From: a virus
Taxonomy: Duplodnaviria > Heunggongvirae > Uroviricota > Caudoviricetes
Reading direction: 5' to 3' (one strand)
Virus record (IMG/VR): IMGVR_UViG_2693429748_000011
Length of the DNA stretch: 4,541 nucleotides
Numbering within the stretch: the stretch's first letter is position 1; the number at the start of each line of letters is the position of its first letter. The position numbers and the translations under genes were made by a program. The notes beneath the pieces were generated by a model. That model ran no database searches. It was not told the DNA's origin and saw only the letters and a program-made list of their open reading frames with translations. This document shows, one piece after another, positions 1-4,541 of the stretch.

Positions 1-82
1 CCAGAACGGGTGGAATTATAGTGCACCTGCACCTCATAAAACGGGTGCCGGGATTGCTACCCCGAAGTCATTCACGGCGCAT

Positions 83-105
83 AACCGCGCTCAGGCGGTT
101 TTTTT
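83..105 (+). terminator. Putative rho-independent terminator (short GC stem followed by T7 tract) ending an upstream + strand transcript
   Basis: aaccgc(83-88) pairs with gcggtt(95-100) around a 6-nt loop, followed by a run of seven T ending at 105. Stem is only 6 bp, so moderate confidence. Confidence 0.4.
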
Positions 106-271
106 ATGCGTAATGCACAGCCACATTCAAATTATGGTGGGGCGTGCGGGGCAGTCGCAAGACTGGCCGGGTTCCGTGATGACCGGTTGTAGCAACCCTG
201 TACGTCTCACCACCCATGAGATTGCTACCTCCGGTGGTGAGTTAATCAAATTCATCGCGGAGGCTGCCATC

Positions 272-458: not shown

Positions 459-476
459 AACTGCGTAAGGCGTTAA

Positions 477-926
477 ATGTTGGATAAAATTCGCAATCTG
501 GACTGTTCAGCAAAATTCACTGAGCACAATTTTGTGTCGAGCGAATACACCGACTCAACCGGGCGCAAACTCCCAATGTACCAAATCACCAAAAACGGCT
601 TCGTTTTCCTGGTTATGGGCTTCACTGGCAAAAAAGCCGCTGCATTCAAAGAAGCCTACATTGCTGAGTTCGACCGCATGGAGGCCGAACTGCGCCAGAA
701 TAACACCCCACCTGCTGACAAGATGATTCCGGGTGATGGTCGCACTCTGGTTGTTCACTTCGACAAATTCGGCAATGTCGAATTCACCGAAACCGTTCCT
801 GATGGCGCACTGGTCTGTCCCCTGGAGACTTTCCGGTTTTATCTGGAAAAACAGGGATGGACTCTTGTTAACCGGGGCGCAATTAAAAATATGACTGTGG
901 AACAATTACTCAAAATTCATTGTTGA
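477..926 (+). CDS. Rha-family phage regulatory protein, C-terminal portion (N-terminally truncated as assembled; possible pseudogene or second paralog)
   Basis: Frame-0 translation from 477: ...IRNLDCSAKFTEHNFVSSEYTDSTGRKLPMYQITKNGFVFLVMGFTGKKAAAFKEAYIAEFDRMEAEL..., matching the Rha-domain core as recalled from memory. A stop codon lies immediately upstream in frame (NCVRR*). Stop TGA at 924-926. Confidence 0.65.
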   Translation: MLDKIRNLDCSAKFTEHNFVSSEYTDSTGRKLPMYQITKNGFVFLVMGFTGKKAAAFKEAYIAEFDRMEAELRQNNTPPADKMIPGDGRTLVVHFDKFGNVEFTETVPDGALVCPLETFRFYLEKQGWTLVNRGAIKNMTVEQLLKIHC

Positions 927-936
927 GGACGCAATA

Positions 937-1125
937 ATGGAGACGTTATTACCAAACGTTAATACGTCTGAAGGTTGTTTTGAAATTGGTGTCACTATCA
1001 GTAACCCTGTATTTACTGAAGATGCCATTAACAAGAGAAAACACGAACGGGAGCTATTAAATAAAATATGCATTGTTTCAATGCTGGCTCGTTTACGTCT
1101 GATGCCAAAAGGATGTGCACAATGA
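937..1125 (+). CDS. Hypothetical small protein (62 aa), first gene of a coupled pair downstream of Rha
   Basis: ATG 937 preceded by GAGGA (925-929). Stop TGA 1123-1125 overlaps the next start (ATGA). A second copy at 2208-2396 differs at 6 of 62 residues with the ORF intact. No recognisable motif. Confidence 0.5.
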   Translation: METLLPNVNTSEGCFEIGVTISNPVFTEDAINKRKHERELLNKICIVSMLARLRLMPKGCAQ

Positions 1126-1313
1126 ATACAGTATTTGCACTCGTTCTGACGGTTTTTCTTGTTTCCGGTGAACCGGTTGACATGGTTACTGGCGTATACA
1201 GCTCAATGAAAGAATGTATGACTGCCGCAGCGAAACAGAAAATTCCCGGTGACTGTTATCCGGTCGATAAAGTTATTCACCATGATAATAACGAAATCCC
1301 GGCAGGTCTTTAA
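1122..1313 (+). CDS. Hypothetical small exported/membrane-anchored protein (63 aa) with hydrophobic N-terminus and two conserved Cys
   Basis: ATG 1122 with AAGGA at 1109-1113 (8-nt spacing). MNTVFALVLTVFLVSG is a hydrophobic signal-peptide-like or TM segment; Cys32 and Cys45 are conserved in the divergent copy at 2393-2584. Roughly 10 synonymous substitutions between copies support real coding. The six-frame ORF start at 1068 lacks an RBS. Confidence 0.65.
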   Translation: MNTVFALVLTVFLVSGEPVDMVTGVYSSMKECMTAAAKQKIPGDCYPVDKVIHHDNNEIPAGL

Positions 1314-1347
1314 AACAGTTCCGTAATAAATATCCGGTTTCNCCAAC

Positions 1348-1851
1348 TTATTGATAGTGTTTTATGTTCAGATAATGCCCGATGACTTTGTCATGCAGCT
1401 CCACCGATTTTGAGAACGACAGCGACTTCCGTCCCAGCCGTGCCAGGTGCTGCCTCAGATTCAGGTTATGCCGCTCAATTCGCTGCGTATATCGCTTGCT
1501 GATTACGTGCAGCTTTCCCTTCAGGCGGGATTCATACAGCGGCCAGCCATCCGTCATCCATATCACCACGTCAAAGGGTGACAGCAGGCTCATAAGACGC
1601 CCCAGCGTCGCCATAGTGCGTTCACCGAATACGTGCGCAACAACCGTCTTCCGGAGACTGTCATACGCGTAAAACAGCCAGCGCTGGCGCGATTTAGCCC
1701 CGACATAGCCCCACTGTTCGTCCATTTCCGCGCAGACGATGACGTCACTGCCCGGCTGTATGCGCGAGGTTACCGACTGCGGCCTGAGTTTTTTAAGTGA
1801 CGTAAAATCGTGTTGAGGCCAACGCCCATAATGCGTGCAGTTGCCCGGCAT
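1348..1851 (-). CDS. insB: IS1 protein InsB (C-terminal catalytic part of InsAB' transposase)
   Basis: 167-aa translation [113 protein letters not shown]... matches IS1 InsB. Overlaps the insA 3' end in the -1 frame. Confidence 0.92.
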
Positions 1852-2045
1852 CCAACGCCATTCATGGCCATATCAATGATTTTCTGGTGCGTACCGGGTT
1901 GAGAAGCGGTGTAAGTGAACTGCAGTTGCCATGTTTTACGGCAGTGAGAGCAGAGATAGCGCTGATGTCCGGCAGTGCTTTTGCCGTTACGCACCACCCC
2001 GTCAGTAGCTGAACAGGAGGGACAGCTGATAGAAACAGAAGCCAC
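1770..2045 (-). CDS. insA: IS1 protein InsA (transposition repressor / N-terminal part of InsAB' transposase)
   Basis: 91-aa translation [91 protein letters not shown] matches IS1 InsA from memory. Confidence 0.95.
1788..1794 (-). other. IS1 programmed -1 ribosomal frameshift site (A6C slippery motif) in the insA/insB overlap
   Basis: + strand gtttttt is AAAAAAC on the coding (-) strand, inside the insA-insB overlap, as in canonical IS1. Confidence 0.8.
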
Positions 2046-2077
2046 TGGAGCACCTCAAAAACACCATCATACACTAA

Positions 2078-2100
2078 ATCAGTAAGTTGGCAGCATCACC
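2078..2100. repeat. IS1 terminal inverted repeat (IRL-type end), intact
   Basis: Reverse complement of 2078-2100 reads ggtgatgctgccaacttactgat. Confidence 0.85.
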
Positions 2101-2197
2101 TTTCCGGTTTTATCTGGAAGAACAGGGATGGACTCTTGTTAACCGGGGCGCAATTAAAAATATGACTGTAGAGCAATTACTCAAAATTCATTGTTGA
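2101..2197 (+). pseudogene. 3' remnant of a second Rha-family gene copy (last about 32 codons), beginning exactly at the IS1 boundary
   Basis: 2101-2197 aligns with 830-926 with about 4 nt differences, stays in frame (..FRFYLEEQGWTLVNRGAIKNMTVEQLLKIHC*), stop TGA 2195-2197. No upstream coding sequence: IS1 abuts at 2100. Confidence 0.6.
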
Positions 2198-2207
2198 GGA
2201 CGCGATA

Positions 2208-2396
2208 ATGGAAACGTTATTACCAAACGTTAATACGACTGAAGGTTGTTTTGAAATTGGTGTCACTATCAGTAACACGGTATTTACTGAAGATGCCATT
2301 AACAAGAGAAAACACGAACGGGAGTCATTAAATAAAATATGCATTGTTTCAATGCTGGCTCGTTTGCGTCTGATGCAAAAAGGATGCTGGCGATGA
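2208..2396 (+). CDS. Hypothetical small protein (62 aa), divergent second copy of the 937-1125 gene
   Basis: ATG 2208 with GAGGA upstream; 6 of 62 aa differ from copy A; ATGA overlap with the following gene is conserved. Confidence 0.5.
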   Translation: METLLPNVNTTEGCFEIGVTISNTVFTEDAINKRKHERESLNKICIVSMLARLRLMQKGCWR

Positions 2397-2584
2397 ATAC
2401 AGCATTTGCACTCGTTCTGACCGTTATTCTTAATACGGGCGAACCAGCTGAACTGGTTACCGGAGTATACAACTCCATGAAAGAATGCGTGGCTGCTGCA
2501 GCTGAACAGAAAATTCCCGGTAACTGTTATCCGGTTGATAAAATCATTCACCAGGATAATAAAGAAGTCCCGGCAGGTCTTTAA
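2393..2584 (+). CDS. Hypothetical small exported/membrane-anchored protein (63 aa), divergent allele of the 1122-1313 gene
   Basis: MNTAFALVLTVILNTGEPAELVTGVYNSMKECVAAAAEQKIPGNCYPVDKIIHQDNKEVPAGL; 16 of 63 aa differ from copy A, with the hydrophobic N-terminus and both Cys kept. AGGA RBS conserved. Confidence 0.65.
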   Translation: MNTAFALVLTVILNTGEPAELVTGVYNSMKECVAAAAEQKIPGNCYPVDKIIHQDNKEVPAGL

Positions 2585-2677
2585 AGCAGCCACGTAATAA
2601 ATATCCGGTTTCATTTTTATATGCCAGCAATGGCAGGGATTTGTTCACCCTTAAATCTGTAATGAGGTTAAAACAAA

Positions 2678-2740
2678 ATGAGTAAAGTCTTTATTTGCGC
2701 CGCCATTCCGGACGAAAAGGCAACAAAAGAAGAAGGCGCT
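2678..2740 (+). CDS. 5' fragment (first 21 codons) of a second copy of the 353-aa hypothetical protein gene, running into N gap
   Basis: 2664-2740 is identical to 3437-3513 (RBS region plus MSKVFICAAIPDEKATKEEGA). Truncated by the gap at 2741. Confidence 0.6.
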
Positions 2741-2788
2741 NNNNNNNNNNNNNNNNNNNNNNNNNNNNNNNNNNNNNNNNNNNNNNNN
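2741..2788. other. Assembly gap / masked bases (48 N)
   Basis: Run of n. Sequence context changes across it, from the 353-aa gene start to the middle of the small-gene pair. Confidence 0.95.
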
Positions 2789-2799
2789 GGATGTGCACA

Positions 2800-2991
2800 A
2801 TGAATACAGTATTTGCACTCGTTCTGACGGTTTTTCTTGTTTCCGGTGAACCGGTTGACATGGTTACTGGCGTATACAGCTCAATGAAAGAATGTATGAC
2901 TGCCGCAGCGAAACAGAAAATTCCCGGTGACTGTTATCCGGTCGATAAAGTTATTCACCATGATAATAACGAAATCCCGGCAGGTCTTTAA
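2800..2991 (+). CDS. Hypothetical small exported/membrane-anchored protein (63 aa), third copy, identical to 1122-1313
   Basis: 2789-3020 appears base-for-base identical to 1111-1341. The upstream partner gene is lost in the gap. Confidence 0.65.
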   Translation: MNTVFALVLTVFLVSGEPVDMVTGVYSSMKECMTAAAKQKIPGDCYPVDKVIHHDNNEIPAGL

Positions 2992-3075
2992 AACAGTTCC
3001 GTAATAAATATCCGGTTTCATTCTTATATGCCAGCAATGGCAGGGGTTCGCTCAACCTTAATTAAGGAGAAAAAC

Positions 3076-3351
3076 ATGATTACCAGTTATGAAGCCACTG
3101 TTGTAACTACTGATGACATTGTTCACGAGGTTAATCTGGAAGGAAAGCGTATTGGCTACGTGATTAAGACAGAAAATAAAGAAACCCCATTCACTGTGGT
3201 TGATATCGACGGTCCATCAGGCAACGTTAAAACACTTAACGATGGTGTAAAAAAAATGTGTCTGGTGCACATAGGAAAGAATCTGCCCGCAGAAAAAAAA
3301 GCCGAATTTCTGGCAACTCTGATTGCAATGAAATTAAAAGGTGAAATCTGA
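3076..3351 (+). CDS. Hypothetical protein (91 aa), moron-like accessory gene with its own RBS; function unknown
   Basis: ATG 3076 preceded by a strong AAGGAG (3064-3069, 6-nt spacing). MITSYEATVVTTDDIVHEVNLEGKRIGYVIKTENKETPFTVVDIDGPSGNVKTLNDGVKKMCLVHIGKNLPAEKKAEFLATLIAMKLKGEI. No signal peptide, Lys-rich. Followed by a palindrome at 3361-3381. Absent from the paralogous context at 2585-2677. Confidence 0.7.
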   Translation: MITSYEATVVTTDDIVHEVNLEGKRIGYVIKTENKETPFTVVDIDGPSGNVKTLNDGVKKMCLVHIGKNLPAEKKAEFLATLIAMKLKGEI

Positions 3352-3360
3352 AAAAAAGAA

Positions 3361-3381
3361 AGCCTGCACACTGTGCAGGCC
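3361..3381. terminator. Perfect palindromic stem-loop after the 91-aa gene; terminator-like (U-tract is on the minus-strand side)
   Basis: gcctgcac-act-gtgcaggc is an 8-bp GC-rich stem. On the + strand it follows an A-run (aaaaaaagaaa) and has no T-run after it; on the - strand it reads hairpin then tttcttttttt, a classic intrinsic terminator. It may terminate antisense transcription or stabilise the moron mRNA. Confidence 0.4.
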
Positions 3382-3450
3382 TGAGTGAAGAACCTGGGAC
3401 ATTTATTCATCACTCGCAGTAATTTTAATCTGAGTTGAGGTTAAAACAAA

Positions 3451-4512
3451 ATGAGTAAAGTCTTTATTTGCGCCGCCATTCCGGACGAAAAGGCAACAAA
3501 AGAAGAAGGCGCTAAACCTGTAGCCACTGCCATTGAAGCCGGCGACGAACGCCGCGCCCGCGCAAAATTTCACTGGCAATTCCTGGAACATTATCCGGCT
3601 GCTCAGGACTGCGCTTATAAATTTATTGTCTGCGAGGATAAACCTGGTATACCCCGCCCTGCCCTCGATTCCTGGGATGCTGAATATATGCAGGAAAACC
3701 GCTGGGATGAGGAGTCTGCTTCCTTTGTCCCGGTTGAGACTGAATCCGAACCGATGAACGTCACTTTTGACAAGCTGGCCCCTGAAGTACAGAACGCTGT
3801 CATGGTTAAGTTCGACACATGTGAAAACATCACCGTTGATATGGTGATTAGCGCGCAGGAACTGTTGCAGGAAGACATGGCAACATTCGACGGACATATC
3901 GTTGAAGCGTTGATGAAAATGCCAGAAGTTAACGCCATGTGTCCGGAGATTAAACTGCATGCCATCGGGTGGATTAAGCATAAATGTAAGCCTGGTGCAA
4001 AATGGCCAGAAATTCAGGCAGAGATGCGCATCTGGAAAAAATGTCGCGAAGGTGAACGCAAGGAAACCGGAAAATACACGTCTGTTGTTGATCTCGCCCG
4101 TGCCAGAGCCAATCAACAGCACACTGAAAATTCAACAGGAAAAATCAGCCCGGCCATTGCTGCCATTCATCGCGAATACAAGCAGACATGGAAAACACTG
4201 GATGACGAACTGGCCTACGCTCTCTGGCCTGGTGATGTGGATGCCGGAAACATTGACGGCAGCATCCATCGCTGGGCAAAAAATGAAGTTATCGACAACG
4301 ACCGCGAAGACTGGAAGCGTATCTCGGCATCAATGCGCAAACAGCCTGATGCCCTTCGCTACGACCGCCAGACTATTTTTGGCCTTGTCCGTGAACGTCC
4401 GATCGACATTCACAAAGACCCTGTGGCACTGAACAAATACATTACTGAATACCTGACTACAAAGGGCGTGTTTGAAGATGAAGGAACAAATCAGAGCGCA
4501 ACTGATACTTGA
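3451..4512 (+). CDS. Hypothetical prophage protein (353 aa), acidic, function unknown
   Basis: Long ORF with start ATG 3451 and GAGG at 3437-3440. The first 21 codons and RBS region are conserved in a second copy at 2664-2740. No Walker, HNH or obvious DNA-binding motif recognised by eye. Overlapping antisense ORFs judged spurious. Confidence 0.8.
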   Translation: MSKVFICAAIPDEKATKEEGAKPVATAIEAGDERRARAKFHWQFLEHYPAAQDCAYKFIVCEDKPGIPRPALDSWDAEYMQENRWDEESASFVPVETESEPMNVTFDKLAPEVQNAVMVKFDTCENITVDMVISAQELLQEDMATFDGHIVEALMKMPEVNAMCPEIKLHAIGWIKHKCKPGAKWPEIQAEMRIWKKCREGERKETGKYTSVVDLARARANQQHTENSTGKISPAIAAIHREYKQTWKTLDDELAYALWPGDVDAGNIDGSIHRWAKNEVIDNDREDWKRISASMRKQPDALRYDRQTIFGLVRERPIDIHKDPVALNKYITEYLTTKGVFEDEGTNQSATDT

Positions 4513-4541
4513 GGTGTACTGGCAATAGCGGACACTACCAT

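Follow-up and report, generated by a model that had tools for sequence, protein, structure and literature searches.

The 4,541-nt stretch analyzed here (hereafter the window) is a draft scaffold in its entirety, probably of a Shigella sonnei-type isolate, and not a contiguous piece of a genome. Over all 4541 nt, including the Ns, it was identical to the entire NCBI record CXBM01000244.1 (GCA_001260235.1). Since the same Ns are found in the public record, the idea that they had been added to the window as masking was rejected. The interleaved repeats of the window are very probably an assembly artefact, i.e. a scaffolder or gap filler chained pieces of prophage remnants in an order without counterpart in finished genomes. 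Three runs of 13, 1, and 48 Ns (446-458, 1342, and 2741-2788) separate four ungapped pieces, termed C1 (1-445), C2 (459-1341), C3 (1343-2740), and C4 (2789-4541). Probes of 120-140 nt across every suspicious junction, as well as the whole window, were searched against 5,426 finished E. coli genomes. None of these genomes matched the window over its full length or held 80% or more of it in a single place. All joints were judged on assemblies of isolates other than the source. An earlier note on this DNA had suggested that an assembler or scaffolder threading through an IS1 repeat joined two different lambdoid prophages. Finished genomes indeed contained each piece without interruption, distributed over different prophage remnants, so that the joining of different lambdoid remnants stands, but the number of source loci is at least two and probably three, all of them riddled with IS elements.

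Piece C1 carries, on the plus strand, the 5′ region of a Rha-family antirepressor gene (C1-type rha), with isrK (29-105) and a C4 antisense RNA (130-217) upstream of it, both recognized by Rfam. It derives from a Rac-like remnant; S. sonnei 53G (HE616528.1, L022 9168-9612) has the same sequence at 100% identity, leading unbroken into the rha body. Piece C2, likewise read on the plus strand, starts with an internal fragment of IS600 orfA (459-479) joined directly to an internal part of a second rha paralog (rha′, ORF 477-926, Pfam Phage_pRha), followed by A-type dicB (937-1125, Pfam DicB) and A-type ydfD (1122-1313, Pfam DUF1482). What had been treated as a single context A (1-1341) consists of two pieces from two rha paralogs. 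The 13-N gap lies between these paralogs; its flanks (392-445 and 495-548) are homologous rha segments with 76% identity, and therefore the scaffold steps back by about 90 nt into the paralog. The junction between the IS600 fragment and rha′ (CTGCGTAAGGCGTTAAATG|TTGGATAAAATTCGC) was found in nine drafts, among them the N-free L027. A false closure at 479|480 was considered and rejected, as this junction shows only about 2 nt of microhomology and lies within an N-free 8-kb contig. Within C2, alleles are mosaic, with rha′ alleles at 559 and 819 and C1-type alleles at 614-656. The match of C2 to the Rac-like remnant of 53G was 98.1%, with identity from 820 on.

In other isolates, C2 continues directly into the head of C4 (2789-3446, plus strand), which is its true continuation and matched the Rac-like remnant of 53G at 99.7%. 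This head contains a second copy of A-type ydfD (2800-2991), located within the exact copy of the C2 end at 2789-3019, and geneX (3076-3351), a 91-aa gene of unassigned function followed by a terminator-like hairpin. C2 and the head of C4, overlapping by exactly 231 nt, form a single ungapped sequence in seven sister drafts (L026-L030, L032, and L033), and L027 has no N at all across this region. An 81-mer spanning 1341|3020 was present in 9/9 comparators, and all seven sister drafts as well as both finished genomes pass 1341 without a break into geneX.

Piece C3 consists of IS1 (1343-2100) and block B (2101-2740). The latter belongs to a Qin-like remnant next to ynfE and comprises, all on the plus strand, (i) the 3′ end of rha-B (to 2197); (ii) B-type dicB (2208-2396); (iii) B-type ydfD (2393-2584); and (iv) the first 63 nt of ydfE (2678-2740). 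C3 was identical to finished S. sonnei genomes at 1398/1398 positions. Joined to 3514-4541, it yields 2,426 nt which, without a mismatch, were an exact substring of six S. sonnei-type records (L008, L009, L012, L013, L014, and L016). The gene order in finished S. sonnei is rha::IS1-dicB-ydfD-ydfE(353 aa)-IS600-ynfE/F/G/H. In finished genomes of this species, each piece of the window is adjoined by a different sequence. The remnant carrying the A-type genes and the Qin-like remnant lie 210 kb apart in 53G and 81 kb apart in CP032523.1. The underlying biology is ordinary and already seen in finished genomes: S. sonnei harbors several lambdoid prophages in decay, whose paralogous rha-dicB-ydfD modules are interrupted by IS1 and IS600.

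Piece C4 is a chimera in its own right. At 3436-3446, it contains an 11-nt string on the plus strand (TGAGGTTAAAA) common to A-type and B-type sequences, and here the scaffold changes locus. After this string, every A-type comparator continued with AACAATGAGCACCG and then IS600, whereas the window continued with the B-type CAAAATGAGTAAAG. The 31-mer CTGAGTTGAGGTTAAAACAAAATGAGTAAAG defines the switch in the scaffold, with GAGGTTAAAAAACAATGAGCACCGATAAAC and CTGTAATGAGGTTAAAACAAAATGAGTAAAG as the true A-type and B-type counterparts. Among the assemblies searched, the A-to-B switch occurred in this record only, which points to a false gap closure that left no N. The tail of C4 (3447-4541, plus strand) is the true continuation of block B. 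It includes a ydfE-type exonuclease gene (3451-4512; Pfam YdfE_N and YdfE_C), cut to 353 aa by IS600, and the right end of IS600 (4510-4541, named after RefSeq annotation, 99.8%). A return to context A from 2789 onward, as proposed previously, holds up to about 3446, but 3436-4541 is context B.

The arrangement of the repeats relative to the Ns also argues for an artefact. Recomputation confirmed the similarity of about 90% reported for 830-1341 and 2101-2612 (462 of 512 nt, i.e. 90.2%), with 95.7% identity over 830-1110 and 83.5% over 1111-1341. The second, exact repeat had been placed at 1111-1341 and 2789-3020; its identity was verified (231/231), but the second copy ends at 3019. A third repeat, absent from the earlier note, connects 2663-2740 with 3436-3513 (78/78). 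Both exact repeats butt against N runs: one copy of the 231-nt repeat begins at the first base past the 48-N gap and the other stops immediately before the single N, while the 78-nt copy at 2663-2740 ends at the 48-N gap. The 48-N gap separates pieces of different loci, and the sequence on its left repeats 3436-3513 and that on its right 1111-1341. We also considered the 78-nt overlap as a k-1 overlap of Velvet (k = 79). This was dropped, as edge extension by a gap filler explains it equally well.

Conceivably, the entire structure could be real, with paralogous dicB-ydfD modules amplified in tandem in association with IS1, or arranged as a mosaic, in one prophage and with nothing but small gaps left unsequenced. 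Scaffolder linkage does need some read pairs, and lambdoid prophages are known to recombine into mosaics. However, this arrangement would need (i) a junction leading from codon 21 of ydfE into the final codons of A-type dicB within about 48 nt; (ii) an IS1 without its terminal repeat; and (iii) the identical ydfE::IS600 junction twice, and none of these three structures was present in any finished genome searched. Moreover, the repeats stop exactly at the N runs, unlike in a biological duplication, and the two halves of the structure exactly match two separate loci of finished genomes. We regard this possibility as extremely improbable. A mixture of templates, from two sub-clones that differed in IS or prophage configuration or from contaminating E. 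coli DNA, could account for the allele mosaics in C2, but it is also highly improbable. All finished S. sonnei genomes examined had both A-type and B-type loci, so that intragenomic paralogs are sufficient without a mixture, and mosaics and misjoins of the same kind recur in several independent sister assemblies.

IS1 (758 nt, minus strand; insA at 1770-2045 and insB at 1348-1851, Pfam InsA and DDE_Tnp_IS1) was 100% identical to L009 9136-9893. Its left inverted repeat (IRL) is intact and abuts block B exactly at 2100|2101, in agreement with the earlier description of this border. The corresponding statement for the other side, that block A ends exactly where IS1 begins, was not borne out: a single N (1342) is followed by an IS1 whose right inverted repeat (IRR, at 1343) lacks the outer 10 nt (GGTAATGACT). 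L009 has GGTAATGACT at 9126-9135, and both IS1 ends are intact in finished genomes. The flanks also lack a 9-bp target duplication, the left one reading ...ATCCGGTTTC plus N and the right one TTTCCGGTT. In L009, L010, L015, and L016, the 9-bp TTTCCGGTT flanks IS1 on both sides within rha-B; therefore, the insertion is genuine and its true left flank lies outside the scaffold. The only genuine IS1 junction of the window is 2100|2101, an ordinary fixed insertion in rha. Contig L006 of IMG/VR and nine S. sonnei records contained this junction, and a scan of the species-representative genomes and metagenome contigs yielded no occurrence. Of the nine bases before the single N, the last eight (TCCGGTTT) recur in the rha-B target site TTTCCGGTTTT, a coincidence that the artefact reading leaves unexplained.

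A true joint between C2 (ydfD-A) and IS1 would read ...AATATCCGGTTTC followed by GGTAATGACTCCAAC, with ATATCCGGTTTC and then GGTAATGACTCC as flank strings, give or take a few bases. The predicted junction was absent from IMG/VR, the species-representative genomes, the 5,426 finished E. coli genomes, and the fetched Shigella loci; as with the A-to-B switch, no other assembly searched contained it. Together with the N beside a truncated IS1, this speaks against the alternative raised earlier, a true IS1-mediated recombination or amplification. In a partly real version of the structure, IS1 would truly lie just downstream of A-type ydfD in the isolate, with artefacts limited to the joints at 2741-2788 and 3436-3446. 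This could reflect an insertion, specific to this strain, into one of two A-type copies, or a hybrid IS1 formed by homologous recombination with the IS1 in rha-B, which would have inverted or deleted the DNA between the remnants. If true, the hybrid would imply a chromosomal inversion or deletion of about 80-210 kb. Consistent with a partly real structure, C2 ends at 1341 without an obvious repeat boundary (the run shared by A and B is 20-23 nt), and S. sonnei is often rearranged at IS copies, which makes a strain-specific IS1 beside A-type ydfD conceivable. IS1-IS1 recombination is known at this locus, where rha-B was lost between two direct IS1 copies in 4/9 S. sonnei-type records (L008, L012, L013, and L014; three of them finished chromosomes and the fourth a large draft contig), block A not being involved. 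Nearby IS1 insertions also occur in some E. coli, namely 26 nt further downstream in H113 and inside A-type dicB in L004. However, IS1 was located elsewhere in all E. coli matches with IS1 near dicB or ydfD (H10, H11, H21, H113, and L004), and the sister drafts and finished genomes described above run straight through the site. The hybrid would also call for a complete IS with gap-free junctions to flanks from two loci, and the A-side offers an N and a truncated IS1. With an N at the joint and an IS1 end that is short by 10 nt, the record contains no read-derived junction. Given the very high copy number of IS1, a paired-read link to one collapsed IS1 contig is weak evidence. Overall, a partly real structure seems very unlikely, as does a real event at the single-N joint itself, be it IS1 directly after A-type ydfD or a Rac-like/Qin-like hybrid IS1.

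Under the preferred reading, an assembly artefact, a paired-read scaffolder would have chained four short-read contigs, after which a gap filler extended their edges. The contigs stem from (i) the ynfE-adjacent Qin-like remnant (block B); (ii) the Rac-like remnant next to ttcA (C1-type rha and A-type dicB-ydfD-geneX); and probably (iii) a locus with the IS600-delta::rha′ fusion. Each contig edge would have grown into its own true neighbouring sequence, and because these neighbours were already present elsewhere in the scaffold, extension would have produced the exact 231-nt and 78-nt duplicates at the N runs. An 11-nt chance overlap at 3436-3446 would have falsely closed one gap, fusing A-type geneX to B-type ydfE. 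Two true paths can be proposed: IS1, the rha-B 3′ end, dicB-B, ydfD-B, ydfE (353 aa), and IS600 (1343-2740 plus 3514-4541); and rha, dicB-A, ydfD-A, and geneX (459-1341 plus 3020-3446), followed by recE′::IS600. Sister scaffolds contain the same pieces in mutually inconsistent orders, with differing A/B or rha/rha′ allele mosaics, and scaffolds of the same lineage also have single-N joints at IS ends.

Where an overlap is predicted and not detected, SSPACE puts in one n. GapFiller cuts 10 nt off gap edges and extends them from both sides; a gap is closed when the ends overlap by at least 10 nt (Boetzer and Pirovano 2012, PMC3446322). The Sanger pipeline combining Velvet, SSPACE, and GapFiller, which its authors call greedy and prone to false joins, was the source of 299 assemblies of S. 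sonnei that averaged 405 contigs (Page et al. 2016, PMC5320598). Isolates of S. sonnei from Holt et al. 2012 carry CXBN, CXBR, and CXBV, accession prefixes that neighbour the one of this record. These prefixes and the gap style suggest that the CXBM record was made by this pipeline. No paper or supplement in which CXBM01 or GCA_001260235 is cited turned up in a literature search.

As a consequence, the gene order of CXBM01000244.1 is unfit for prophage comparison, pan-genome counts, and analysis of IS1 target sites. Gene copy number (two copies of A-type ydfD and two ydfE starts) and the adjacency of geneX and ydfE are unreliable as well. The site at 3436-3446 illustrates that gap filling can leave behind a chimeric junction which contains no N and is unmarked by any gap character.

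Several features of the window resemble false joins by SSPACE and GapFiller, i.e. N gaps of estimated size, a single-N joint, and duplicated gap edges. Closure on an 11-nt overlap and the 10 nt missing from IS1 at the single N fit the GapFiller algorithm; trimming is not uniform, however, as the IS1 end is complete after an N run in L006 and L029, which counts against this explanation of the missing bases. The A-type pieces resemble the Rac-like remnant of 53G next to ttcA (HE616528.1, ~1.9605-1.9622 Mb; L022), to which C1, C2 from 549, and 2789-3446 correspond at 98-100%, and the rha′-dicB-ydfD-geneX contigs of sister drafts (L026-L033), with which they share the gene order rha-dicB-ydfD-geneX. 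There, the segment is unbroken and leads into 27 nt of recE, after which comes IS600, whereas in the window it is split, partly duplicated, parted by the contig of IS1 and block B, and fused to ydfE. The Qin-like remnant of 53G next to ynfE (HE616528.1, ~1.7498-1.7523 Mb; L009) matches 1343-2740 and 3514-4541 exactly, sharing IS1, the rha-B 3′ end, dicB, ydfD, ydfE (353 aa), and the IS600 end. In the window, this path is broken by 48 N and 647 nt of another prophage, IS1 lacks its outer 10 nt, and the upstream part of rha-B with the 9-bp duplication is swapped for the A-type contig. Genes for DicB, DUF1482, and a YdfE/RecE-type exonuclease follow each other in this order downstream of the immunity region, and Pfam hits on the called genes of L031 (PF05358, PF07358, PF27430, and PF27432) agree with RefSeq names in the E. 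coli matches. The same families, DicB, DUF1482/YdfD, and a YdfE-type exonuclease, make up the dicB-ydfD-ydfE module of the Qin prophage of E. coli K-12; the modules described here differ from it in that a Rha antirepressor gene lies upstream of dicB and that IS1 and IS600 interrupt them.

By exact-protein look-up, the window was found to be identical, Ns included, to CXBM01000244.1 (GCA_001260235.1; 4541 nt) and therefore represents a whole small scaffold from a draft genome. Adjacent accession prefixes (CXBN, CXBR, and CXBV) denote Shigella sonnei isolates from the collection of Holt et al. 2012, and the CXBM record probably belongs to the same batch; a literature search returned no paper citing it. 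Three N runs (446-458, 13 N; 1342, 1 N; 2741-2788, 48 N) divide the scaffold into the ungapped pieces C1 (1-445), C2 (459-1341), C3 (1343-2740), and C4 (2789-4541), of which C3 is 100% identical to finished S. sonnei genomes, e.g. 53G (HE616528.1).

Both repeats described in the earlier note were recovered: the paralogous blocks 830-1341 and 2101-2612 agree at 462 of 512 positions (90.2%), and 1111-1341 recurs without mismatch at 2789-3019 (231/231). An additional repeat, absent from that note, links 2663-2740 with 3436-3513 (78/78). The 231-nt repeat has its first base directly after the 48-N run and its last base directly before the single N, and the 78-nt repeat stops where the 48-N run begins, so these exact repeats are piece ends.

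The pieces with the A-type version of the rha-dicB-ydfD module match a single Rac-like remnant adjoining ttcA in 53G (C1, 100%; C2 from 491, 98.1%, identical over 820-1341; 2789-3455, 99.7%). There, rha continues unbroken into dicB-A, ydfD-A, and geneX, after which come 27 nt of recE and then IS600. The locus with the paralogous B-type module lies 210 kb away in 53G and 81 kb away in CP032523.1. In the nearest finished E. coli genome (O121 strain 201805972), C1 and the C4 head (2789-3446) reside in two prophages 1.1 Mb apart, and none of 5,426 finished E. coli genomes holds at least 80% of the window in one place. All seven sister drafts, i.e. other draft records with the same 149-aa ORF of the second rha paralog in C2 (rha', 477-926), carry C2 and the C4 head as a single ungapped sequence with an overlap of exactly 231 nt, and L027 (8,004 nt), one of the seven, is entirely free of N. 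An 81-mer spanning 1341|3020 was found in nine of nine A-type comparators. Taken together, the ungapped sisters and the shared 81-mer establish 3020 onward as the true continuation of 1341, so that the contig of IS1 and block B has been placed between two overlapping ends.

IS1 and block B (2101-2740) are identical (1398/1398) in 53G and seven other fetched records, comprising finished chromosomes and two large draft contigs, where they run directly into ydfE; six records contain C3 plus 3514-4541 (2,426 nt) without a mismatch. The order in those genomes is rha-B::IS1, dicB, ydfD, ydfE (353 aa), IS600, ynfE/F/G/H, dmsD, and clcB, and this B locus is a Qin-like remnant. Since the IS1 in their rha-B (the rha of the B locus) is complete at both ends and flanked on each side by a 9-bp duplication (TTTCCGGTT), 2100|2101 reflects a genuine, fixed, simple insertion. 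In 53G-type records (L009, L010, L015, and L016; locus ~7120-9900), rha-B is bracketed by two direct IS1 copies, one with the 9-bp duplication CAACCGTTT and the other with TTTCCGGTT. In four S. sonnei-type records (L008, L012, L013, and L014; a large draft contig plus three finished chromosomes), a single IS1 has mismatched flanks (...CAACCGTTT | IS1 | TTTCCGGTT...), a genuine IS1-IS1 deletion of rha-B in 4/9 records compared. In E. coli O121 201805972 (L004, NZ_CP119441.1, 5201-6015), an IS1 lying directly upstream of ydfD-A and geneX truncates A-type dicB 102 nt ahead of its stop codon; this independent insertion hit the same module elsewhere.

Very active as IS1 is in S. sonnei, with the recombination that deleted rha-B in those four of nine records, it is nevertheless highly improbable that a strain-specific IS1 really lies after ydfD-A: the record holds no sequenced junction at the joint of C2, the single N, and IS1, the IS1 is truncated there, all nine comparators read straight across 1341, and the predicted ydfD-A|IS1 junction was found in none of the collections searched. 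The 8-mer TCCGGTTT is shared by the C2 end (the final 8 of the 9 bases preceding the N, 1333-1341) and the rha-B IS1 target site TTTCCGGTTTT (2101-2111), a coincidence whose chance expectation, over the offsets taken into account, is ~1 in 1000.

A false join unmarked by any N was located within C4. The A-type comparators all have ...CTGAGTTGAGGTTAAAAAACAATGAGCACCG... with IS600 after it; the corresponding sequence of the window is ...CTGAGTTGAGGTTAAAACAAAATGAGTAAAG..., which continues from 3447 as the B-type ydfE start (C4 tail, 3447-4541). The switch falls within an 11-nt string common to both types (TGAGGTTAAAA), and the junction was absent from finished E. coli genomes, IMG/VR contigs, and the other 33 fetched loci. 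Along the scaffold the loci thus run A (C1), A/C (C2), B (C3), A (C4 head), and B (C4 tail), an order that single-copy loci cannot produce in any linear arrangement.

Where SSPACE predicts an overlap but cannot find it, it writes one n. GapFiller trims 10 nt off each gap edge, lets both edges grow one base at a time, and declares closure once the extensions share an overlap of 10 nt or more, provided that the fill size falls within 50 nt of the gap estimate (PMC3446322). In the Sanger pipeline, Velvet is followed by SSPACE and then by GapFiller, run for 120 rounds as thresholds fall to 5 read pairs; the paper describing it calls both SSPACE and GapFiller greedy and liable to false joins, and covers 299 S. 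sonnei assemblies averaging 405 contigs (PMC5320598). This behavior most likely accounts for each oddity, including the IS1 edge at the single N, which is short by exactly 10 nt. Contigs of paralogous, IS-bounded loci would have been chained together, and each edge extended into its own true neighbor (C3 into ydfE; C4 back into ydfD-A and dicB-A), duplicating sequence already in the scaffold; one gap would have been closed on an 11-nt coincidence. As the longest exact run between A and B is 49 nt, paralog cross-talk is plausible with short reads.

C2 is mosaic: positions 559 and 819 carry rha' bases, and positions 614, 626, 641, 653, and 656 are C1-type. The two paralogs mixed here occur separately in sister assemblies, and the mosaic represents either a collapsed-repeat consensus or gene conversion. 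Further signs of paralog confusion are B alleles at 899-1008 within the A copy of L032, an A/B mosaic after the same IS1 in L006, and sister scaffolds in which the same pieces are joined in differing orders and IS ends carry single-N joints. Other joins involve IS600. The interior of its orfA (...CTGCGTAAGGCGTTAAATG) is fused to a rha paralog interior (TTGGATAAAATTCGC...) with ~2 nt of microhomology (window 459-480; L027 6556-6589; L007 4079-4112); the junction occurs in nine draft records (among them an 8-kb contig free of N), was absent from all finished-genome loci fetched, and looks like a real, sub-lineage-specific IS600-adjacent deletion. A suspicious join in L026 (13409-13445) fuses 32 nt of an IS600 end straight to dicB codon 5. 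Likewise suspicious is the join in L029 and L032, where C1-type rha is cut by IS600 at window-equivalent 910, with a single n after ...CAATTACT; which IS600 end is joined to this rha by the single n varies by isolate.

Genes were identified by Pfam on called genes and RefSeq names of close E. coli matches. They comprise Rha-family antirepressor fragments, dicB of A-type (937-1125) and B-type (2208-2396), three copies of ydfD/DUF1482 (1122-1313, 2393-2584, and 2800-2991), IS1 (1343-2100, minus strand), and a ydfE-type exonuclease gene (3451-4512). IS600, named from RefSeq annotation of 99.8%-identical copies, contributes the last 32 nt (4510-4541) and cuts the ydfE-type gene (~823 aa in E. coli) to 353 aa at 4509|4510 (L009 11529-11561), the same base as in finished S. 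sonnei genomes; the truncated remnant directly abuts ynfE/ynfF. GeneX (3076-3351, 91 aa) matches no Pfam family, has a GC-rich hairpin 3′ (3356-3384) and an A-run 5′, and is confined to A-type modules, where it is flanked by ydfD and an exonuclease gene that in E. coli and 53G is RecE-type, not YdfE-type. Its internal deletion in L006 (ACTGTTGTA|GGTGAAATC) may be another false closure.

Of the two readings in the earlier note, chimeric scaffold or IS1-mediated rearrangement, the former is supported, as the pieces match separate loci, the repeats end at N runs, and the C4 junction is unique. The interleaved structure is no real feature of the genome, and the main value of the record is as a warning that it is unfit for gene order or copy number use. 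Just upstream of the antirepressor gene, Rfam placed isrK (29-105, plus strand, 64.8 bits) and a C4 antisense RNA (130-217, plus strand, 79 bits), both above the gathering score and both overlapped by the long Rha CDS called by RefSeq and Prodigal; this is the known layout of an antisense-RNA-controlled antirepressor. The real content of the scaffold is two already-known decayed S. sonnei prophage modules and one ordinary IS1 insertion.
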